Positions 24,378 through 42,350 of a stretch of 64,000 nucleotides of DNA are shown here, piece after piece. The stretch comes from Alphaproteobacteria bacterium (GTDB lineage: Bacteria > Pseudomonadota > Alphaproteobacteria > Bin95). The DNA lies in the NCBI GenBank assembly GCA_964291285.2, contig OZ219787.1:64001-128000 (forward strand), given 5' to 3'. The translations under genes and the position numbers were made by a program. The notes beneath the pieces are model-generated. The model ran no database searches. It had not been told where the DNA came from and saw only the letters and a program-made list of their open reading frames with translations. Within the stretch, counting starts at the first letter, position 1, and the number at the start of each line of letters is the position of its first letter.

Positions 24378-27300
24378 CTATTGAGATCGTGGACACAGTA
24401 TCTCTGCGATCTCATACCAGCGGGCATAGTTCAGAACCCATTGGCCCATTTTCGGGTTCCGATGGAGGCGATGCGTTCTGGTTGTGAGACGAGATTGTTC
24501 CAGGCCTGGCAGCAGTGATCGAGTATGTCGTCGTAGTTCTGGAAGACGCGGTTCGAGAGCCAATTTTCGCGCATGAACTGCCAGACATTCTCGACGGGAT
24601 TGAGCTCGGGGGACCGGGGCGGGAGCGGCATCAGGGTTATGTTGTCGGGGACTTTGAGGGCCGGGGATGTGTGCCATCCGGCCCGGTCGAGCATGACGAG
24701 GGCATGGGCTCCGGGTTCAACGGTGAGGGCGACCTCGGCGAGGTGGGCGTTGAGTGCCTCCGTGTTGGCGTGGGGCATGACGAGGCCGGCGGCCTTGCCC
24801 TTCTGCGGGCATATGGCGCCGAAGATGTAGGCCGAGATGGTTCTCTGGTCCTTGGGCGCTGACGGTCGGGTGCCGCGTTTAGCCCATCGCCGGGTGATCT
24901 TGTTCTTCTGCCCGACGCGCGCCTCGTCCTGCCACCAGACTTCGACCTCGACGCCGTCGCCGAGTGCAGCGCGGATCTCCTTCAGGCGGTCGGGGAAGTT
25001 TTTTTGAACCCTGCCAGCGCGGCTTCGTCCTGGGCATAGTGGCGCGGGCGCGCAGAGAGCTTGGCGTAGCCCATCCGGCGCAACTCCCGCCCGACCGTCG
25101 TCTCCGCCAACGAGATGCCGAACTGCTCGCTGAGCCATGCCGCCAGGTCGCAGCGCCGCCACCGCACCACGCCGTGGATCGCCGGGTCCGGACCGCTCTC
25201 CACAACCGCCGCCAGCGCCGCGCGCTGCTCCCCGTTCAACTTGCGCGGCGGACCTGAGGCCTTGCGATCCTTCAATCCCTCCGGGCCTTCCGCGTTGAAG
25301 CGAAGAACCCAGTCCCGGATGATCTGCAAGCCCACCCCCGCAAAACGCGCCGCATCCGAACGACGGTAACCGTCGTAAATCACCGCAAGCGCAAGAAGGC
25401 GACGGTTCTGCGAACCATCCCGGCTCCGCTGCGCCAAGCCGCGCAACTGCGCCGCATCAAAATCCTCCCTCAAGGGGATTGCTGCCCTCATAACGACCCT
25501 CCAATCGCAGAATCGCTATTGAGTCAGAACTCGATAACCTTGGGAATCCCCTCAATGAGTCTCAACCCTCAACCGCTGGTATCACCCACTAGCTCGCAAA
25601 GTACCGCCGTATCAGCCCCTCTCACAGTGCGGTCAATTGTCGATAGCCCGTATCGCGGTTGCATGGCCTCGGCGGCATGTCGCCGAAGCTCAGCGGCCCC
25701 TTGGATCCGCATGTCGGGCGCTAACGACCGTTCGGTTTCGGTTTGCAGGTCACGGGAGATTTTCTTTAGCAATGCTTCTTTGGCACCAGGCGGACCCGAG
25801 ACCGCCAGCGCGGAACAACCCCACAATCCGTCTCCGAATATATCGGCGCACGACATATGCCTTCCTGCCTTAAACGTCCAACCCAGAAGAAGATTGCTAA
25901 TTTCCTCTGCGTTGTCGGAACAGTCCAATTCACGCGCTGTCCGCGCAGATGCAAACAGGGTATCTGTTAACCCCATTTTCCTAGGAATGATACCGATACC
26001 TCTTCGTCCGGAATCCAACTCAGCGTGGCTATCAGCCAACTTGCATGATTACGTAATTCTCTGCGGGTTTGGTGGTCGCAAACGTGCGCATTCGACGTCA
26101 CCAGAAGAATCCCGGTCATACCTTGTATCCATTGAAGCATATGGCTCGTAAAGTGAGACTCCGCAACTACGGCTGCAAAAAGTAGCTCCTTCGCCGACCG
26201 ATACAAGTCTTTCGCCCACTGCTCGATGTTTCTTGCCACCGTTTGAGCGACTTTGTTTTCAACATCTGAGCCTGATATGAAACTGACTAAACGTGCCAAT
26301 TCAATCCTCAAGGCCTGATAATCACTAGAAGAAAAATAAGGAACGAGCATCATGCCATGATCCATACCATGAATATCCTGGGGGACGTTACTGCGAATCT
26401 TTACGAATTGCTTCGCTATAGAAAATACGTTATCTTGTATCTTGTCCAGTGCGGATTTGATATTGTGTCCTTTGGAACGAAGTAGAACGAGCGTCAGATC
26501 CCTGTACTGTTTCATACCCTCCATAATCACGGGGCGGTAGTTTTCCCTTACGCATCCAGTCAAGGCAACATGCGCGATACTCTGACAGAGCACTGCCACT
26601 GCGGGGTCGGTCTCGTGTCCAGCCGCCACAAAATGACGGGTTGCTTGTCCCGTAAGCCGTTGTCCCTCCATCAGCACGTCGGCCAGGTCATGTCCTGCGG
26701 CCGCTTGTACAGCATTTGCGAGATATCCCGCCGCAAGTTGTGCGTGATGCTTCTCCGCCCCAGGATTGGCGTAGTCGATATCAGCATATAGCTGCACAAG
26801 CATTGTCAGCGCCCGCATCAGTTGTTCTATCTGTCGTTCGTCGCGACGTCCGATTGCAGTGTCAGCATTCTGGCGTAGGCATTCCAGACTGTCGGTAATG
26901 AACGCATCGTGTGACCAAGGATGCTCAATCATGAGCGCGTTGGCGTAGAACGTTGTCCCCTTCGCCTTTATGTAGGCGGCATTGATCCCGACAATAACGT
27001 CGAGTGCATACCTGGATACTTCATAATCCCTTTGCTCTGCATACCGCCGCGCGAAAGACATGGCATGATGCATATTTCTGATAGCATCGGATGTCCAATG
27101 CGAATTTTTTTGAAAAAACTTCGTTCGCACAGCGTCGGGATTCGAGCGCTCGGGTAATTGCAGGTCGGTAACCTGTTCCTCCGTCTGCGGTGGCAATTTA
27201 TACCGATCCGCTTTTCGACCCCAACCGCACAACTCTTTTTGCGTGTCGTGAAGGATTATATGAAGTTGTTCCAAAGGGTTTATCAACTTTAACGCTCGTC

Positions 27301-27835
27301 GATATGCATACAGGAATAGGAACAAGATAGCCAACACAGACCAAGTAGAAAAGACCAACGGTAAGACCAGTCTTGTTTGCTCCACTACAGTCGATATAAC
27401 TGCCACGGCGACCGCCAGTGCGAATGCGCTCGCAAATGAACCAAGTAGCTTGCAATCTTCACTGATTCGTCGAAATAAACCGTGGGGCATTCGTTCAACA
27501 TTCACTTGCATCGCAAACAGTACAAGAGAGGCTACTATAGCGGCGGCGCCGATCAACGCGGTGCCGGTATTCAGCAAGAGGCCTTGTACCCGTAGGATTG
27601 TTTCCAAAGGTAACAGTTTGTCTTCAAGAAGGGACTGCAGGTCCGGCAACAGGGTCACGCTCGCCGCAGCGAAAAACGCGATGATAGAAACGACCACGGC
27701 TTTGTTGCCGTATCTGACGAAATATTGTCCTGCCATGTGACGAAAATTGACAATGTAGTGTTGCAGCGTTACCAATCGACGGTACCATTTTTTTCTTGAC
27801 ACCTGCCGCAATCTCCTACGGGCTTTTTTGTTCAT
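24378..27835 (-). pseudogene. Large low-GC membrane protein of unknown function, frameshifted and IS630-interrupted
   Basis: A 622-aa ORF with about four N-terminal TM helices appears to continue in the 25569-26039 frame. Removing IS630 gives ...ELVGEIAEILCPRSQ* ending at 24378. Confidence 0.7.
24415..25581 (-). mobile_element. IS630-family element; orfA 24982-25491 and orfB to 24431, joined by a frameshift
   Basis: HTH orfA; DDE orfB (WWQDEARVG, LDRAGWH, SPELNPVE.VW); A7 slippery run near 25000. TIR TACCAGCGG with TCA duplication. Confidence 0.93.
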
Positions 27836-28143: not shown

Positions 28144-31350
<3,207 letters not shown>

Positions 31351-31462
31351 TACGCCGCGGCTCTGCGCGCTCCCGGGACAAATCTTGCGCGCTCGCGGCG
31401 GAGCATCTCGTACGGACTCATGTGGTGCAGGTTCCTGGCCCGGATGAACGCTTTGACGACCG

Positions 31463-33199
31463 TCACGGTCCAAACGGTCTGTATTCGATCAAGGCGGACC
31501 GGCCGAGGATGTCCACGATGGTGATCGACAATTCCGAGCCATGGGCGTCCGTCAGCCGTATCGGTTTGCCGGGCCGAAACGGCACGGGTTGCGGACGCCC
31601 CTCGTCGATGGCGATGTTGTCGGCATACAGATACGTCCGGTCAGAAGTATCGCGTATCGGGTTCAGCCGTCCGTGCAGGCCAGGAAGGTGTCCCGTGCTC
31701 TGAGAGAAAATCGCGGCACCACCGGATTCGAGCGGTTCGAGTTCGAGCTGCAGGCCGCCCCGATTGGGGGTCCAGGCTCGTTCCAATCCGGCGGCATACC
31801 CCGACCCGGCAGCATAGATCGTCATCGGCAAATTCGTCGTGTAAAGGTCCAGGGCCGCATCGCCGGCCTCGTCAGTCGTCGCCCGGACCCAGGTCTTGTT
31901 GGGAAAGAGCGCAAGAACCTCGATACCGGCGAGGGGCTCACCTCCGCAATGCACCGTGACTGTTGCGTCGGCAGGAACAAGCTCCAGCTTGGCCGCGGGA
32001 ATACGGAGCACCAAGCTCGATTCATCAACCAATCTGTATTCCGGCGGTAAACCGGTGGCCTCCTGGGTTTCCGTGCGGATGATCGACACGCCATCCCCGC
32101 GGCGTTCCATCAGGTACCTGCGACGACCCGACCCTGCCACATTACCGACGGGGATGCGCCCGAACACGGATGCGACCACCTCGTTGCGCGTGGCCTGACT
32201 GGCCTCCATGCCTTCGATGGTCATGCCGTTCGGAAGCTGGCCGGGCGAATCGATCTCCAGACGGTCCTTGAACATGGATAGCCGGATCCTGCGGGAAGAC
32301 ATGGAGTAGTCGCGGTGCGCAACCGCGTTGACCACCGCCTCGAATATGGCAGCTTTGCTGTACTGGAAAACGTCTTCCCGTTCCGGAGTCTTGCGGGCGG
32401 AAACACGCATGTTGCGAACGACGAACCGGACCGCGTCCGCGATCTGTGCGGGGAGCGGTCCGGCGATCTCCTGCGCGTCCAACTGGCCCGAGGCACGATC
32501 CAGTCCGCGATAATGCGTCGCCACGATGGTCGCTTGCGGCAACCAGTCCTGCGGAGAAGGAGTGCAAAGCAGTATGCCGGCCACGGTGGCCCGATCCACG
32601 CCCGCTTCATCCTGCGCCAGCAGGCGAAGATTCAGCAATCCCCGCCGTGGGTCCGCCGCCGCCGCCACGCTGAGCAGCGGCTCCCACAGGCGTTCGCTGA
32701 GTGTCTCGAAACCGGTTTCGGGAACGATCTGCTTGTCGAACCACAGGTAGCGGTTCTGCGCACGATTCTGCGCCAACCTCAGACCTTCGTCCCCGAGCAG
32801 GCGCCGCTTGGTCGCACCGACCCGGACGAATGCCCGCCCGCTCCGTTCATGCAGGGCTTCGCCGCGTGGGACTGCGACCAGCAGGAATGCTCTGCCATCC
32901 AGTTCTCTGTGGTGGACGCCGATGCGCAGCGGCGGCTCGAGGACGTCGGTGCTGACCTCCACAAGCAGGTGGTCCAGTGCCGCCATCCGCTCTCGCGACA
33001 TGCCCTGGATTGTTCCGTCGTCAGACACTCCACAGAGCATTATCCCGCCGTCCGCGTTGCCGAACGCGCCCAGTTCGTCCGCCCAATCGTCTCTGCGTGG
33101 GCTGATCGGTGTGGCGCCACGGAACTCGATCCGCTTGAATTCCCACTGGCTGTCCTCACCCAGGCGGAGTTGGCGGCGGATGTCTTCGTCCCGGATCAT
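31463..33199 (-). CDS. AlbA_2 (Schlafen-like) + HATPase_c_4 (RecG-C-like) protein with a beta-rich C-terminal extension
   Basis: GEDSQWEFK...AFGNADGG...GVSDDG, then [25 protein letters not shown] and ERRGDG. Confidence 0.85.
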
Positions 33200-35773
33200 T
33201 ACCCAACCGCCTTTACAGCACGCTCAGCATCCCGGAGGCGGATTTCGCCGGACATGAGCTTGGGGAGCAGGAGGTCGCGGATAGCGCCAGTGGTCTCGAT
33301 CTGGTGCAGATTGCTCAGGGCGCGTTTCATGATCGGCATCGCCCACAGCTCAAAGGCTTCTGCAACGCTCACCGGTGGCAAGGCTAAATCGACCAGAGCA
33401 AAAGTCTGGCGTGTGATCGTGTCAAAAATCGTGCCGTGCGTCCGGTTCCGCAACTCTTCCACCATCATTCTGACAAGCCAGTATGTGAAGAAGTCACAAT
33501 AGCCGCCGACGCCTCGTATCCCGTAGCAACTCTGATTCATGGCCATCGCCCTGCCGAGACAAGCCAACCTTCCGACAGTGCCCCTTGCGGTAATAACGGT
33601 TGTTCCGGCAGAAAGAACTTTTGCCGCACTGTTTTCAACCCCTGTTTGCGTAATGCTCCTCTCGGTCTCCAAGACGAACATGTCCGAGGAAGATGGCGCA
33701 TCTTTTGCCGTATACCAATAAATTTCGCCATCCCAATAATCTTCGATCGACGTTTTAGGCGTACCTCCACTGTGAATTTCTATTACATCATCCAAAACTG
33801 CTGCCTCCCACCCCTCCGGTATCTCACCGAGTTCGGAGTTGACGAAGCGGTCGGGAAACAGTTCCCACAGTTCGGGGGCGAGGTACGGAGCACGCCCTTC
33901 CATCTTCGCCTTTACCGGCCCGAAATCGACGAACCAGTCCTTGAAGATCGCCCGCGCCATCGCCTCCAGCGTCTCGTTCATGCGCCGGTTCAATGCTATC
34001 TTGTCGTCCAGCGCGCCGAGGATGCCCGCAATCGCCCGTTGCTCGGGGAGAGGGGGCACTGGAACCGGCAGATAACTCAGAGCCTGACCCAAAAAGAGTT
34101 GAGCGGTTTCAAGGGATTGTGATTCAGTTCGGTTATGCATCTGAACGGAGCCACGAATGCCCTGGACCGAAACCGCTCGCCGGGAGTATCGGCGGGACTG
34201 CCCACGATATGCAAGCGATCTGACCGACGCTGAGTGGTCTCTGATCGAGCCCTTCATGCCGTTGCCCTGCCGTATCGGTCGCCCGCGCCAGACCGATCTG
34301 CGCGAGGTCGTAAATGCGGTGCTGTATATGGCCACGACCGGTTGTCAGTGGCGCCAGCTGCCGAAGGACTTTCCGCCGGTCTCGACGGTGCAGCGCTATT
34401 TCTACGAGTGGCGCGACAACAGGCTGTGGCAGACGATCCGGTTCCACCTGGCCGTGCAGGCGCGCGAACGCGAGGGGCGCGAGGCCCAGCCGAGCGCGGG
34501 CGTGATCGACAGCCAGACGGTGAAAACCACGGAGGCAGGCGGGGTTAGCGGCTATGACGCCGGCAAGAAGGTCAAAGGGCGCAAGCGCCACGCTGTCGTC
34601 GACACCATCGGCATGCTCTTCGGCCTCGTCGTACATGCCGCCGACGTTCAGGACCGCGACGGCGCCCCGGCCGTGCTGAAATCCATCCGCCACGCCTGCC
34701 CCTGGCTGCGTCATCTGTTCGCCGATGGCGGATATGCCGGGCCGAAACTGCGCGGCGCCCTCGACAGGATCGGCAAGTGGACGCTCGAAATCGTCAAACG
34801 CTCCGACACCGCCAACGGCTTCGAAGTCCTCCCCGGACGATGGGTCGTCGAACGCACCTTCGCATGGCTCGGGCGCTGCCGCAGGCTGGCAAAAGACTGG
34901 GAAAAATCCATCGCCTCAAGCGAAGCATGGATCAACATCGCCCATATCCGGCTCACAACACGCCGACTCGCAAGGCCTTGAAAAACTTCAGCGAGTTTCG
35001 AGTCAGGCTCTCAGGGAATCGACAGGCACTCGCTGACGCCCGGAAGTGCCGGTCATTTGATCCACGGCGTAGCTTCTCACCCCCTCCCATTGAGTTAGGT
35101 AGTAGGCGTACTCGGAATCCGTGACGCCCGCGCGTCCGCGGATAACGATGAACTCGGTCGAGCCATGCGCGCACTCTGCCGCCCGGTCTGTGCAATAACG
35201 GGCAATCTTGCCATTCTCCAAGCACGGCGTAATGCGCGCCATGAGCGTGTCGCCATCTTGGAAGCGCGACCCGCCGCCGGAATAGGCGCGCCGGTCAATC
35301 GCATGTACGCACCGGGAACCGGCAGTGACCGCAGCCATATCAACGAACGGATACGCCATTCCGCGTTCAAGACGCACTGCCGGGTTGACAACGACTGCTT
35401 CGGTAAACGGCATACGCCGCCACTTTTCATCTACAGAGAGCCTCCTTCGCCTGGTGTCATCAATGTCTGCCAGCACCGCATGGTTCCGCTCAATCTCCCG
35501 ATGAAATCGCTCCGGCAGGCGCGCCCAGTCGCGGGCCTCGACCAAGAAGGGAATGTACGATTCCCGCACCGCCTCCTCGAAGCCCGCCATGTTGCCCACC
35601 GGAATTTCCTTCAATCCCGGCCCGCGCAGCACCAGATCGAGATCGCTGCCGTCATGGCTGCGCCCGTTGACGCGGCTGCCATAGGCCCACACCTCGACAT
35701 CGGGCAAATGCTCCCGCAACAGTGCGTCCAGCGCCTCGCGGTGCTTCGGCTGGAGATGCAGCCGGTCAGTCAT
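33199..35773 (-). pseudogene. hsdS: MNT nucleotidyltransferase-HsdS fusion (546 aa reconstructed), interrupted by IS5
   Basis: N-terminal GSRVNGRSHDGSDLD, then TRD1, PPLPEQRAIA..L..LDDKI, GEIPEGW, TRD2 and RDLLLPKLMSGE. The frame is restored on removing 34077-35010. Confidence 0.9.
34080..35010 (+). mobile_element. IS5-family (IS1031-like) element; transposase 34157-34981
   Basis: YASDLTDAEW, IDSQTVK, ADGGY and RWVVERTFAW. TIR GAGCCTGAC with a 3-bp TSD TCA. Confidence 0.95.
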
Positions 35774-36191
35774 CGGGCGTCGCCTCGATCATGTCCGCCA
35801 GCGCCCGGGCATCGGCGATAAAGTCGGGCAACAGCTTGAGCGTGGCCTCGGCGAAGCCTGCGCCGTAGTCGTGCGCGGTATCGTTGCGGTTGTCGCGATA
35901 GCCGAACCAGCGTTCCGCTGCGTCGGCTTCGATCAGTCCGTGCCGGGCGGCGTGGCGGAACAGGTCCTTGAAGGCAAACCGGTCGGCCTGTCTGTTGCTC
36001 GCGAAGAAAGCGGCAAGCCGCTTGCGCAACAGTTTGCCGCTCTGCTCCAGCACCAGCTCGAACTCCTTCACGCAGGCAGCGCGATAGATGTCATACATGA
36101 AATCGTCCGCCGCGCGATGCTTGTCGATCTCACCGAAAGCTGTCTCCAGCGTTCCGATGCAGCGCCGCAGGAAGGTGGTATCGATGCTCAT
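35766..36191 (-). CDS. HEPN-domain toxin (HI0074/HepT-like)
   Basis: RNDTAHDY matches RX4HXY; also KEFELVLE and FKDLFRHAA. 8-bp overlap with the MNT start. Confidence 0.88.
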   Translation of the reverse strand: MSIDTTFLRRCIGTLETAFGEIDKHRAADDFMYDIYRAACVKEFELVLEQSGKLLRKRLAAFFASNRQADRFAFKDLFRHAARHGLIEADAAERWFGYRDNRNDTAHDYGAGFAEATLKLLPDFIADARALADMIEATPDD

Positions 36192-36235
36192 GTCCCGCTG
36201 CTCCGTCCCCGGTGCGCAGACCCGTTGCGGCTCAT

Positions 36236-36748
36236 TCATGAGCGGCAGGCCGATTTGTCGATCAATTTCGGCAAGATTATGAGCCTCAGCAACCGTTGTA
36301 TGACACAGGCGTGCGCCATGTTGCCCACCGGAATTTCCTTCAATCCCGGCCCGCGCAGCACCAGATCGAGATCGCTGCCGTCATGGCTGCGCCCGTTGAC
36401 GCGGCTGCCATAGGCCCACACCTCGACATCGGGCAGATGCTCCCGCAACAGTGCCTCAAGCGCCTTGCGGTGCTTCGGCTGGAGATGCAGCCGGTCAGTC
36501 ATCCGGCGCCGCCTCGATCATGTCCGCCAGCGCCCGGGCATCGGCGATAAAGTCGGGCAGCAGCCTCAACGTGGCCTCGGCGAAGCCTTTCCCGTTGTCA
36601 TGGGCGGTATCGTTATCGACAATCCCTCGCAGGTCATGGCAGGTGTAAGGCCCAGGCTGTCGGGGAACAGCCTTCACCGGAAGGCGCCGCGCGCCTTGGT
36701 GTACCGACATGTTTCCCAACGCATGCAGAGGATGGGAAGAGATCATCG

Positions 36749-36752
<4 letters not shown>
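36236..36752 (-). pseudogene. Truncated second HEPN(3')/MNT(5') cassette
   Basis: About 36315-36615 is a near-identical direct repeat of 35586-35886. Confidence 0.85.
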
Positions 36753-38287
<1,535 letters not shown>

Positions 38288-38529
38288 ATAGTCTGAATCC
38301 TTGGCCGCCAACGCGGATACAGTTTGCCGACTCGGCTCTACGAATACCACTGCATACTTGGCCGACACGGTTCGGGCGGGGAAGGATCCCGTAGATCGCG
38401 GTGCCACCATTCCAGCGTCGCCGACGCTGCCCAACAGATCAATATGATAGCGCGTCACGGGGTACAGGATGCGCCGCCCGAGCGACAGGCACTGAGAGCA
38501 CGGTCAAAACCAGTCCAAGGCCGGGCGTC

Positions 38530-38737: not shown

Positions 38738-39166
38738 CTACTTACGCCAACTCCCTGACCATAGACCACGCCATATTCGTACGATCCGTGATCGAAGAGC
38801 CCGACGGCTCCGTGTTGAGTCCAGCAAACGGGCCCGCTCGCCGTCGACATACTCCGAATGACGACTTGGATCGATCCCCTCCAACCAAATCACCGCGTTA
38901 TCCCGTATCACGTAGTGGCTGCCGCAGCCGGAATTGGCCCACACGGATCCACCCGTAGGACCGTCGAGCGAGACCGACTTCCCATCGAAGTGAACGTGCC
39001 ATCGACTGGGGTGGAGGGACAGCACCGTCAGATCGCCGCATCCGCAAGGGCAGCGCAGGTTGACAGTCCGATGTTTGTGGCTGATCCAAAGCTCGCCGGT
39101 TTTGATTTGGTCGAACTTGGGCAGCACCTCTACGAAGACAGGGCAGAGTTTCACGGGCATTCTCAC
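38738..39166 (-). CDS. DUF6527-family protein
   Basis: GELWIS...CPCGCG...L.L.P..W...DG..VSL...SV...GC.SHYVIR.N.V.W. Confidence 0.8.
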   Translation of the reverse strand: MRMPVKLCPVFVEVLPKFDQIKTGELWISHKHRTVNLRCPCGCGDLTVLSLHPSRWHVHFDGKSVSLDGPTGGSVWANSGCGSHYVIRDNAVIWLEGIDPSRHSEYVDGERARLLDSTRSRRALRSRIVRIWRGLWSGSWRK

Positions 39167-40365
39167 CGCGAGTCATTCGCTCTGACACTGACAATGCGCG
39201 GGGTTTCGAGTCGGAATTTATAGAGGAACGAAGCCGACTCCGACACATACTGCTCCGTGCGGCGCCGCCACTCCATCACGGCGAGCGACGCCGCCAACGC
39301 GTTCACTTCCGGTAACTGGACGTTGTGATAGCCGGGCACACTGCCCTCGATTCTAGCGTTCGGTATGGCCTCCTTCCATGCCTCAGACCCAGCGGCATAG
39401 GCGCTTGTCGTCACGGCGCCTCTAACAGCGCAGTCTTCCAGCGCTATGCTCACGCCCGAATCTATAAACGGAACCCTCGTCTCAGAGAGTGCGCAGTAGA
39501 CGGCATCCTGACGCGACGAATCGCCGTTGGTCAGCTGGTCGATACACACGAATGCATAGTCGATGGGGTGTGCCGACAGAAACTTGCCGAAAATTGACGG
39601 ACTGTCTATCCGGACAGCGTGCGCGTGGATGCCTTCCCGGAGAGGTGTATACTTGGAGAAGTAGTAGTCTACTTTGCGCAAATGTTCCTTTTTGCACAAC
39701 TCAACCTCCTCGGCTGTAGGTGCACCGGGCGCACGCATCAAATTGTGCCAGTTAACGCCGTCTGAATCCAGTAGATGAATTTCCTTCACGGGCGTTTTTG
39801 CGACAAGATCGAGGACGTAGGCGCCTGTTCCGCCCAGACCAATGATCGCAATCCGTTGACTACGGATGCGATCCTGAACCGGCCTCAACGCCGCTCGTGC
39901 CTCGAACGTGTTGGGTATCTTGAAAGGCTCCTGCTTCGCTAGAGAAGCGGTTTCGGAGTAACCGGCCTCCGACACGGCCCCGACGATCTGCTTCGCGTAG
40001 CGGTGAATCAAGTCATCCACCGACCCATCCTCCTCCGGACTGCCTTGCCCACCTTTCTTGATGGAAATGATCGACCAAGTCTTTCCATCGCCGGCGATGT
40101 AGTTCTCGATCGGGGTTCCATCCGCGTGGTACACGCGCCCGTCGAGTTCTTCGTCAGTGATGATCCGCACCGCATGGATCGCGTCGCCTATCTGATCATT
40201 CGGTTTCCCGTTCGCACGGTCGTACGACTTCTCTATAGTGCAAGTGCCAACGCCCCTGTCTGCAAGGAGACAAGGCACCCCCACGGCCCGGACGACATCG
40301 GAATCGACTCTGATGCTAAACCCGGCCTGCTCACCGAACGCTTTGAGGCGATTCCTACGAGACAT
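39163..40365 (-). CDS. ThiF/E1-like adenylyltransferase with an N-terminal extra domain (DUF6791-like)
   Basis: IAIIGLGGTG.YVLD.VAKTPV.EIHL.D.D...HN..RAPG, FVCID and Q..E.NAL.A. The start overlaps the upstream Ubl stop. Confidence 0.85.
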   Translation of the reverse strand: MSRRNRLKAFGEQAGFSIRVDSDVVRAVGVPCLLADRGVGTCTIEKSYDRANGKPNDQIGDAIHAVRIITDEELDGRVYHADGTPIENYIAGDGKTWSIISIKKGGQGSPEEDGSVDDLIHRYAKQIVGAVSEAGYSETASLAKQEPFKIPNTFEARAALRPVQDRIRSQRIAIIGLGGTGAYVLDLVAKTPVKEIHLLDSDGVNWHNLMRAPGAPTAEEVELCKKEHLRKVDYYFSKYTPLREGIHAHAVRIDSPSIFGKFLSAHPIDYAFVCIDQLTNGDSSRQDAVYCALSETRVPFIDSGVSIALEDCAVRGAVTTSAYAAGSEAWKEAIPNARIEGSVPGYHNVQLPEVNALAASLAVMEWRRRTEQYVSESASFLYKFRLETPRIVSVRANDSR

Positions 40366-40603
40366 GCTCGGGGTCGACCGAAAAGCTTGTGCCGTCCTTG
40401 ACTTTAACATCCTTGCCCGGCAAGAGAACACCGTCCTCGTCCTTGAAATCGTCTTTGTAGTCGATGCCGGGTGTACCGATGATGTGCTTGTTCTCTGCCT
40501 TGTGCAGCTTGTTCCAGATCTTTACGACCTCGGCATAGTTAACAATATGGCCGGGGACTTTGTACACTCGACCGCTCACGTAGATCTCCGTGTCGCCATT
40601 CAT
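40355..40603 (-). CDS. Ubiquitin-like (multiubiquitin-domain) protein, 82 aa
   Basis: IYVSGR...VNYAEVV...Y...G.L.PG..VKVKDG.SF.V beta-grasp pattern; first gene before ThiF. Confidence 0.7.
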   Translation of the reverse strand: MNGDTEIYVSGRVYKVPGHIVNYAEVVKIWNKLHKAENKHIIGTPGIDYKDDFKDEDGVLLPGKDVKVKDGTSFSVDPEHVS

Positions 40604-41030
40604 CGTTTTACTTCTCCGATTGTTGGAGGTTGAAGGGAATTCGAACCACTCGGCCCAATTGTACATCATGGCAACCCGATGTTCGTCGAAGCACGGGTGG
40701 GTCTTGGCGCTCCGCGCTTCCCGGCGCCATAATCTCCGACCTCAATCCGGGCTCGCACGGCATGATCTCCGTGTAACAGCAATGCGCCTCTGCCGTACGA
40801 ACTCCGCCGCCCCTTCGGTCAGATCCAGGGTCCTCCGAAGGCCAACGAATCTCGTCACTGCATCGCCGCCCTCGATACCAGTGTATTGTTGGGCAGCCTG
40901 ATGGCGCGACGGTCCGACCCACCTTGTCACAGGTGCCGCGGTGATCTATCGTGTATGCCCATGCAGTCCACGGGCAGATAGCCTTACGCGGTGCTGACGA
41001 GATCCATTGATGCATGCGTCTCACTGAGAT

Positions 41031-41074
41031 TGTTGTCCATGCAGACAACATAAGCCACCGCGGCCGCATGTCAA
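41031..41074 (-). promoter_or_regulatory. Operator palindrome overlapping a sigma70-like promoter
   Basis: TGTTGTC-N6-GACAACA at 41031-41050. On the minus strand, TTGACA (41074-41069) is followed after 16 nt by TATGTT. Confidence 0.6.
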
Positions 41075-41084
41075 GGGGAGAGCG

Positions 41085-41468
41085 ATGTCGTTCGGCTACA
41101 CGCTGAGGAGGTTCCGGGAAGCCCGTGGTCTGAGCTTACGCGAGTTCGGCAAGCTCTGCGGAATCGACCACGCGTACATCCACCGGCTCGAACGGGAGGA
41201 AAAGACGGCTCCCTCCGAGCAAGTGGTCGACACCTTCGTCCGCACCTTGAAGCTCAACTCTCGAAGGGCGCGCCTGCTGCGCCTGCTGGTCGGGAAGACG
41301 ATCAACCGTACCCTCATCGACGTGTTCATCGAAGACGAGCAGCGACCGCTGGACCTACTAGAGCCTGCTCACCAGATGAGCTTCCGGGGAACGCGCCCTG
41401 AAGCCAAGGACGACTGGCGCCGGCATGTCGATCGTTTGGCTCGCCTGTTCGATGAAGACGACGAATGA
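41085..41468 (+). CDS. XRE-family HTH regulator (CapH-like)
   Basis: FGYTLRRFREARGLSLREFG..GIDHAYIHRLE. Confidence 0.88.
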   Translation: MSFGYTLRRFREARGLSLREFGKLCGIDHAYIHRLEREEKTAPSEQVVDTFVRTLKLNSRRARLLRLLVGKTINRTLIDVFIEDEQRPLDLLEPAHQMSFRGTRPEAKDDWRRHVDRLARLFDEDDE

Positions 41469-42350
41469 ATGGACGAGTTCCCGACGATTCTCAGTGCTCG
41501 CCAGTTCCTTCGGAACGCTGGCAACGACTCTGTGCCCGTCGACGTCGGGCGCTTGGCTGCGGCAGCCAACGCGAAGATCAAGGTCGCTTACGATCTCGCC
41601 GACGATGAATCTGGCCAGACCACCCGGTTCAAAGGAACACACGTCATCATCGTCAACGGCAATCACACGGAGGAGCGGCAGCGCTTCACCGTGCTTCATG
41701 AAATCGCCCACATCGTTCTTGGACTGCCTTCCCAGCACCACGGCTCGACGCTCAAGACCGACGTGCTTCTCCGGTACGGACGGCGACCCGAGGAAGAAGT
41801 GCTTTGTGATGTTTTCGCTGCCGAGTGCCTGCTTCCTTACCACCCGTTTGCCGAACAAGTCTCCGACTCGGAAATCTCCCTGAATGCCGTGAAGTCGCTT
41901 GCCCGAGAATACAAGGCATCATTGACCACGACGGGATCGAGATTCGCTCTGAATGCGAGAGAGCCCTGTGCGTTCGTCCTCAGCGAGAACGGGCGGATCC
42001 GTTATGTGTCCCGGTCGAAATACCTGAATGAGCTGAAGGGATGGATCAATTTCAACGCCTCTGTGCCGCAAGGCAGCGTCGCGCAGCGCCTGATCGAGGG
42101 TGGTCCGAAGATCGAGGATTACGACGAACTTCCAACAGATGTCTGGTTCGACGGAGGCGTCAGGAACCGACCATTGATTGCTGAGGAAGCCATCCTCCTG
42201 CGGGACTGGAATCAATGTCTTTCACTCATCTGGTTTGACGAGCGCCTGACACCAGTCCGGGAGCGCCGGGACGAGGATGAAAAGGTTGAGCCTTTGCTCC
42301 AACAGCTTGACGGTACACTACCGTGGCCATCCAGAAGCCGCCGTGGATAG
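41469..42350 (+). CDS. ImmA/IrrE-family metallopeptidase (CapP-like)
   Basis: RQRFTVLHEIAH (HExxH) and E..CD.FAAECLLP, with a GAF-like C-terminal region. Abuts the HTH gene. Confidence 0.88.
   Translation: MDEFPTILSARQFLRNAGNDSVPVDVGRLAAAANAKIKVAYDLADDESGQTTRFKGTHVIIVNGNHTEERQRFTVLHEIAHIVLGLPSQHHGSTLKTDVLLRYGRRPEEEVLCDVFAAECLLPYHPFAEQVSDSEISLNAVKSLAREYKASLTTTGSRFALNAREPCAFVLSENGRIRYVSRSKYLNELKGWINFNASVPQGSVAQRLIEGGPKIEDYDELPTDVWFDGGVRNRPLIAEEAILLRDWNQCLSLIWFDERLTPVRERRDEDEKVEPLLQQLDGTLPWPSRSRRG

Follow-up and report, generated by a model that had tools for sequence, protein, structure and literature searches.

What kind of system is encoded at positions 38738 to 42350 of the window, the 64,000-nucleotide stretch of an Alphaproteobacteria bacterium genome analyzed here (GenBank assembly GCA_964291285.2, contig OZ219787.1, positions 64,001 to 128,000 of the forward strand)? 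Three coupled genes on the minus strand, coding for a ubiquitin-like protein (Ubl), a ThiF-type enzyme and a DUF6527 protein, are divergent from a pair coding for a helix-turn-helix (HTH) protein and an HExxH peptidase. A first-pass annotation had taken the locus for a non-canonical conjugation system with a possible antiphage function and no known mechanism. We propose a more specific answer. With a probability of about 0.88, the locus is an intact Type II Bub operon accompanied by CapH/CapP, with the catalytic and regulatory steps assigned by homology and analogy. Bub is the new name of the "6E/DUF6527" operons, and Type II was formerly 6E.2/DUF6527 (Ye, Gong, Chambers and Corbett, bioRxiv 10.1101/2024.11.21.623953). 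The text of that preprint describes Type II Bub both structurally and biochemically. What stands of the earlier proposal is a CapH/CapP-associated Ubl conjugation operon in a defence and mobile region; the mechanistic novelty does not.

Gene content and class of the operon

The first gene of the operon, bubA (40355..40603, minus strand), is preceded by the Shine-Dalgarno-like sequence GGAGAAG and codes for a single beta-grasp Ubl of 82 amino acids that ends in ...VKDGTSFSVDPEHVS before a TAG stop codon. The ATG of bubBD (39163..40365, minus strand) lies 11 nucleotides inside the 3′ end of the bubA open reading frame (ORF), and its 400-amino acid product was identified as a probable E2-E1 fusion by Pfam ThiF, alignment and structural modelling. 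The third gene, bubE (38738..39166, minus strand), begins at 39166 with a GTG that overlaps the bubBD TGA by 4 nucleotides or at 39160 with an ATG located 2 nucleotides past that stop, giving a protein of 140-142 amino acids. This protein matches Pfam DUF6527 (PF20137) with an E-value of 3.2e-15 and 56.2 bits, the cut-off being 23.6. On the plus strand, capH (41085..41468) codes for an XRE-type HTH repressor of 127 amino acids and capP (41469..42350), directly 3′ of it, for an M78/ImmA-IrrE-type metallopeptidase of 293 amino acids with an HEIAH motif. The product of capH was matched by Pfam HTH_31 (E 3.6e-12) and, over the whole protein, by PADLOC capH (E 6.7e-12), and that of capP by Pfam Peptidase_M78 (E 5.5e-14) and PADLOC capP (E 7.9e-51, profile positions 9-242 of 242). 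The first-pass annotation had already read this arrangement beside a restriction-modification (R-M) locus, the DUF6527-like and ThiF families (Pfam ThiF, E 8.7e-13) and the CapH/CapP-like pair, all of which were borne out. The order bubA-bubBD-bubE is common to 29 of 36 related loci in other genomes, and this recurrence indicates that the arrangement is not due to chance.

According to the preprint text, a Type II Bub operon consists of a Ubl, an E2-E1 fusion and a DUF6527 protein, usually without a JAB peptidase. Although they lack catalytic cysteines, the Bub enzymes reportedly work, by an oxyester route in which the E1 uses an invariant tyrosine of its crossover loop and the E2 an invariant serine together with a lysine and a histidine. 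BubE is described as a protease that relies on a Ser-His pair, has a zinc site of four cysteines and carries a hydrophobic extension. ATP-dependent conjugation via oxyester intermediates and deconjugation by BubE were reported for Citrobacter and E. coli ZDHYS365, and CapH together with CapP was found in 168 of 544 Bub operons (bioRxiv 10.1101/2024.11.21.623953). According to the text of a companion Corbett-lab preprint, the Ubl has a single domain in 40% of Bub operons. A literature search on BubE, BubA and ubiquitin found no later functional paper beyond these two preprints.

All of the published catalytic residues are present by alignment in the proteins of the window: His64, Ser101 and Lys103 in the E2 region, Arg211 and Tyr346 in the E1 domain, and four Cys, a Ser and a His in BubE. 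The first-pass annotation had seen neither a JAB peptidase nor a separate E2. As a statement about genes this holds, because Pfam, NCBIfam and PADLOC scans of the window found neither a JAB domain nor an E2 gene standing on its own. It does not hold for the functions. The E2 is probably the N-terminal domain of the ThiF protein itself, and the peptidase would be BubE.

Folds and conserved residues of the three proteins

An AlphaFold2 model of BubA, built with 38 sequences, has a predicted local distance difference test (pLDDT) score of 86.7 and the strand and helix pattern of a beta-grasp. Its top Foldseek match in the PDB is 9cd2, the multi-ubiquitin protein of E. coli ZDHYS365 (E 1.5e-4, probability 1.00, TMq 0.68), in agreement with the beta-grasp-like character first assigned to the 82-amino acid protein. 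ThiS and ubiquitin-like domains rank after it with much weaker E-values (ThiS, 3cwi, E 2.6e-2). A profile of the BubA clade aligned with 9cd2 from end to end on the third beta-grasp domain, residues 145-222 (E 8.3e-12). A search of the PDB with the single BubA sequence returned chance-level matches only, so that among sequence searches 9cd2 was found by the clade profile alone. Many of the 82-amino acid relatives carry PF14452.

The absence of a C-terminal Gly, with the protein ending in ...PEHVS, had been described correctly but is no anomaly. The 9cd2 chain ends in ...TQTDKS, and Ser is thus the last residue of both the window BubA and the active E. coli protein. Six other Type II BubAs, all from proteobacterial genomes, end in ...TIQS, ...TVQS (three of them), ...TNRS and ...TDKS; at a seventh locus, L067, a simple ORF extraction yielded no BubA. 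Within the clade of the window, 36 loci gave 29 BubA ORFs, every one of which ends in DPEHVS, and the invariant tail can be written ...VKDGTSF[ST]VDPEHVS. Since the active E. coli BubA, the six other Type II proteins and the clade copies all end in Ser, the tail without Gly is, judged from these sequences, a family trait of an active Ubl and no defect. As a rule, it seems, Type II BubA ends in Ser and not in Gly. The consulted text of the Corbett-lab preprints does not state this rule, which their figures or PDF supplement may show. A single relative among 36 aligned clade members, P0364, ends in Gly (...PEHVG).

The E1/ThiF adenylation domain occupies BubBD residues ~140-400 and includes GxGxxG at 176-181, Arg211 and the crossover-loop Tyr346. 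The Pfam ThiF match covers only the C-terminal two-thirds of the protein (residues 184-412 of the 422-amino acid ORF as listed). NCBIfam produced five PRK06153 "hypothetical protein" models on the E1 part, all far under their cut-offs, and ThiF/MoeB matches, also far under cut-offs, that span just a nucleotide-binding motif of ~50 residues. The same motif accounts for the PADLOC E1-E2 models (~50 residues, ~163-214), and a single-sequence PDB search with BubBD gave generic ThiF-motif matches only. The structural model has a pLDDT of 88.7. Its best VIA-align match is Citrobacter BubCD, 9ea5_A, with Z 23.0 and a root-mean-square deviation of 3.2 A over 225 residues (model residues 156-399), followed by UBA5, MoeB, Atg7 and MccB, and Foldseek agrees. 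The Z scores include 21.5 for MoeB-MoaD (1jw9_B), 20.2 for MccB (3h5a_A), 19.1 for PaaA (5ff5_B, model residues 4-397) and 18.0 for Cap2 (7to3_A). Among 97 aligned BubBD sequences, Arg211 is present in all, and the crossover Tyr stands in one column in 78 and in the adjacent column, that of Tyr346, in 18; all 18 sequences of the clade and its sister group have the latter residue. There is no Cys in residues 325-350 of the window protein.

The presence of MccB and PaaA in this list raises a different explanation, a pathway resembling those for ribosomally synthesized and post-translationally modified peptides. The ThiF-like enzyme would adenylate the C-terminal Ser of the 82-amino acid protein to make a modified small-protein product in the manner of MccB or PaaA, with no conjugation, and the C-terminus of BubA not being Gly would suit such a reaction. 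We consider this very improbable. The substrate is a folded beta-grasp protein homologous to a BubA that, according to the preprint text, conjugates covalently in vitro. The nearest E1 is Citrobacter BubCD, the E2-type His, Ser and Lys are conserved together with the crossover Tyr, and neither an exporter nor an immunity gene recurs next to the cassette, in whose flanks only regulators do.

Residues ~1-135 of BubBD correspond by alignment to a DUF6791-type E2 region. In the 97 aligned sequences, His64 is invariant, Ser101 is found in 93, and Lys103 in 72 with Arg in another 10. The modelled N-terminal domain has a helix, four strands, a loop bearing Ser101 and a long helix, an order that is compatible with an E2 fold. 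The four sequences without the Ser (P0165, P0178, P0198 and P0268) have Cys in its place and may be thioester-using variants in an otherwise oxyester family.

In BubE, the sequence contains a CPCGCG...C zinc-knuckle pattern and candidates for a Ser-His dyad (GGSVW...CGSH). The residues C37, C41, C79 and H82 are invariant in an alignment of 22 Type I and Type II BubE proteins, and C39 is present. A single-sequence PDB search with BubE gave chance-level matches only. The C-terminal tail is rich in Trp and Arg (...RIWRGLWSGSWRK) and fits the hydrophobic extension described for the family.

Several results weigh against the assignment of these proteins to Type II Bub. Pfam Multi_ubiq scores 19.4 bits on the window BubA, under its cut-off of 24.5. 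Neither the window protein nor any of 22 clade members is matched by Pfam DUF6791 at E ≤ 1. The N-terminal domain alone aligned weakly by hhalign (probability 27.7%, E 6.4e-4, 72 columns), its profile found zero PDB chains at E ≤ 10, and the fold-search lists obtained with the whole model were filled by the E1 domain, so that they did not separately address a UBC-like fold of the N-terminal domain. Inside the window clade, position 103 is K, R, H or G and not an invariant Lys, and the distance from Tyr346 to the NxQ motif is shorter by one residue than that in the main family. In BubE, MAFFT places a Thr, not a Ser, under the catalytic-Ser column. As regards function, the preprint text reports that no Bub operon was found to protect E. 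coli against phage (bioRxiv 10.1101/2024.11.21.623953); the operon may have an antiphage role or some other function in stress or for mobile elements.

The N-terminal domain is read as a divergent BubB-type E2 because of two results. First, the relatives P0161, P0175, P0256 and, weakly, P0169 carry DUF6791, and phmmer aligns them to the window BubBD from residues 11-30 onward. Second, full-length hhalign against proteins with DUF6791 and ThiF gave a probability of 100% and an E-value of 4e-73 in an alignment that is continuous over residues 3-399 and puts I-S101-I-K103 onto the FSxKP motif. Classical Type II proteins were matched by Pfam DUF6791 in seven of seven cases (best E 4.2e-49). An ESM Atlas search with residues 1-135 returned DUF6791 clusters first, with scores of just 0.78 and 0.76, and is taken as a lead only. 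The catalytic Ser of BubE was assigned to the SVW motif by a reading of spacing and not from the MAFFT column. The clade-invariant GGSVW...C resembles the PSVW...C of Type I, and this Ser is the likely candidate because its distance to C79, seven residues, equals that in the Type I sequence.

Regulation, spread and genomic setting

The arrangement of an XRE HTH and an M78 peptidase divergent from the operon that they presumably control is that of known CapH/CapP pairs. A refuting test named in the first-pass annotation was independence of the operon from this pair, and the linkage was found to hold. Of 30 related loci (L002-L033 without L009 and L025, where 50 of 89 candidate ORFs, those nearest bubA, were put through Pfam), 22 have an HTH and/or M78 gene upstream of bubA, or 23 if L005 is added from blastp clustering. 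A full CapH/CapP pair is found in the window and in L002-L004 and L031. Most relatives of the cassette differ in having a shorter M78 peptidase of ~195 amino acids, which matches the first part of the capP model only, or a fused HTH-M78 protein, which is RmrA-like in L012 and L030. No conserved flanking partner gene beyond regulators was found in the related loci.

The region between the two transcription units includes a promoter-like site, TTGACA-16-TATGTT (41074-41047), that faces bubA and has 10 of 12 matches; the promoter scan found 5 sites in the region where 1.0 was expected. A palindrome, GTTGTC-N6-GACAAC, read directly from the sequence, overlaps the -10 hexamer of this site and is kept in L004 despite different flanking bases. 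We infer that it is a candidate CapH operator; site and palindrome together span 41032..41074 on the minus strand. An inverted-repeat finder reported a single 10-nucleotide pair in the intergenic region, at 40753-40800, and missed the palindrome with its 6-nucleotide arms. The site is separated from the bubA start by a leader of ~440 nucleotides (40604-41046) in which blocks are conserved between the window and L004; the frame of a short ORF in this leader is not kept in L004.

By analogy with published CapH/CapP systems, CapH would repress the divergent bubA promoter. Once activated by DNA damage or phage infection, the CapP metallopeptidase would cleave CapH and turn on bubA-bubBD-bubE. The subsequent steps are proposed from homology with the Citrobacter and E. 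coli enzymes. The E1 domain of a BubBD dimer would bind the 82-amino acid BubA and adenylate its Ser82 carboxylate with the participation of Arg211 and ATP. The crossover-loop Tyr346 would accept BubA as an oxyester and hand it to Ser101 of the fused E2 domain with the help of His64 and Lys103, after which BubA would be joined to a lysine of a target protein. BubE, a predicted zinc-stabilised Ser-His protease with a Trp/Arg-rich tail, would strip BubA off its targets and in this way limit the pathway.

Copies of the cassette with 60-99% identity occur in records whose labels belong to at least seven phylum-level lineages. The labels include Alphaproteobacteria, Pseudohongiella, Dehalococcoidia/Chloroflexota, Vicinamibacterales and other Acidobacteriota, as well as Latescibacterota, Saccharibacteria, Binatia and Longimicrobiales/Palauibacter. 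Its G+C content is 57-59%, compared with 62-72% in most of the window. Taken together, the identity across phyla and the lower G+C content point to movement of the cassette by horizontal transfer, and the pattern of L002-L033 looks like a recent habitat-wide horizontal spread. Several genus names, namely Palauibacter with its species epithets and Porisulfidus, which the abstract of a sponge genome note mentions, suggest communities associated with marine hosts. DUF6527 occurs once in the genome of the window and in 17 of 400 other sampled genomes of the same phylum. Relatives of BubBD turned up in 127 plasmid records, with identities that all fall below 60%; a search of 50,697 phage records found none.

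The spread also bears on whether the operon could be a decaying or inactive relic, devoid of catalytic cysteines and of a C-terminal Gly, that is carried as passive cargo of an island rich in insertion sequences (IS). The island does contain numerous transposases and a broken hsdS, and truncated or fragmentary copies account for 7 of the 36 related loci. A relic is nonetheless highly unlikely, because the three ORFs are intact and translationally coupled, the proteins retain 60-99% identity across very different lineages with a BubA tail that is invariant in 29 of 29 copies, and cysteine-free Bub enzymes are reported as active in the preprint text. The broken or fragmentary relatives (L005, L009, L013, L025 and L033-L037) have a split BubBD or no BubA, and three Dehalococcoidia records contain just a 52-residue BubBD fragment. 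Such relatives mean that, once transferred, the cassette also decays.

The window copy is located between a type I R-M locus, with hsdR at 28144-31473 and hsdM at 36749-38458, and transposases and an integrase. The hsdS (specificity) region, 33199-36752, is disrupted, with an IS5-family transposase inside it at 34157-34981. The same region contains nucleotidyltransferase/HEPN-like pairs twice, with near-identical N-terminal fragments at 35003-35773 and 36236-36502. A protein with Schlafen/AlbA_2 and HATPase_c_4 domains (31463-33199, minus strand) lies between hsdR and hsdS and overlaps or abuts both. Beside hsdR, a 622-amino acid ORF (25967-27835, minus strand) without a Pfam match at E ≤ 1e-4 is situated in a patch of ~50% G+C within surroundings of ~66%. 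A search for an integration site found no transfer RNA gene within the 64-kb window. The least tenable alternative is a sulfur carrier of the ThiS/MoaD-ThiF/MoeB type for cofactor or thio-compound biosynthesis, which the ThiF matches in Pfam and NCBIfam and the ThiS and MoeB-MoaD structures could suggest, but which can be practically dismissed because BubA has no Gly-Gly C-terminus, the NCBIfam ThiF/MoeB matches are limited to a short motif, the surrounding genes code for R-M proteins, transposases and an integrase and not for sulfurtransferases or biosynthetic enzymes, and the linkage to DUF6527 and CapH/CapP is that of other Bub operons.

As an annotation, the window copy of a Type II Bub operon matters little, given that this class of operon has been published together with its structures and chemistry. 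Three small points may be of use to those who work on Bub. Family-based surveys will undercount the E2 domain because a widespread BubBD clade escapes Pfam DUF6791. The C-terminal Ser seems to hold generally for Type II BubA. A near-identical cassette across phyla with swapped regulators clearly illustrates horizontal spread and could inform the search for the biological role of the pathway. More tentatively, the cassette might be a distinct Type II Bub subtype, defined by its minimal 82-amino acid BubA with the invariant tail, an E2 region (ISIKK) diverged beyond Pfam DUF6791 and a Tyr shifted by one residue. It would recently have spread through one kind of community, passing as a whole between members of at least seven phylum-level lineages and exchanging its HTH/M78 switches; we think this doubtful. 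Were it true, selection on the cassette would at present have to be strong, with phages or mobile elements as possible agents, and Bub targets could be sought with a model that is small and highly conserved.

Comparison with known systems

Type II CBASS (cyclic oligonucleotide-based antiphage signaling system) shares with the operon an E2-E1 fusion, Cap2, and is also regulated by CapH/CapP. It differs from the window operon in that the latter has a dedicated Ubl as substrate. Type II CBASS was ruled out for this locus: no CD-NTase, effector or Cap3 is found nearby, where the neighbours are the R-M genes, transposases and integrase. The Bil system (BilABCD, bacterial ISG15-like) is similarly described as a cascade that conjugates a Ubl and is located in defence islands of bacteria. 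Bil is reported to have separate E1, E2 and JAB genes and catalytic cysteines, whereas the window operon has no JAB and a fused E2, with Ser and Tyr at the catalytic positions, and an identity as a Bil operon was discarded on these points.

The closest solved E1 is that of a Type I operon (6E.1), the BubAB/BubCD/BubE of Citrobacter sp. RHBSTW-00271 (PDB 9ea4, 9ea5, 9ea8, 9eae and 9eav). The preprint text gives Type I Bub a DUF6527 protease and oxyester chemistry, which it has in common with the window operon, where the chemistry is predicted. In Type I alone, by the same account, JAB is fused to the E1, the Ubl is fused to the E2, and cleavage of the Ubl leaves a Gly at its exposed C-terminus; the window operon has none of these traits.

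The nearest counterpart is the Type II BubA-BubBD-BubE operon of E. coli ZDHYS365. The two have in common the gene set and order, the E2-E1 fusion (a probable one in the window) with its His/Ser/Lys residues and crossover Tyr, the DUF6527 protein, the lack of JAB, a BubA ending in Ser, and the association of Type II operons with CapH/CapP. The E. coli BubA has three beta-grasp domains and that of the window one, in 82 amino acids. Compared with the Type II reference, the E2 of the window is beyond the reach of Pfam DUF6791 and has ISIKK instead of FSxKP, and the Tyr is shifted by one residue.

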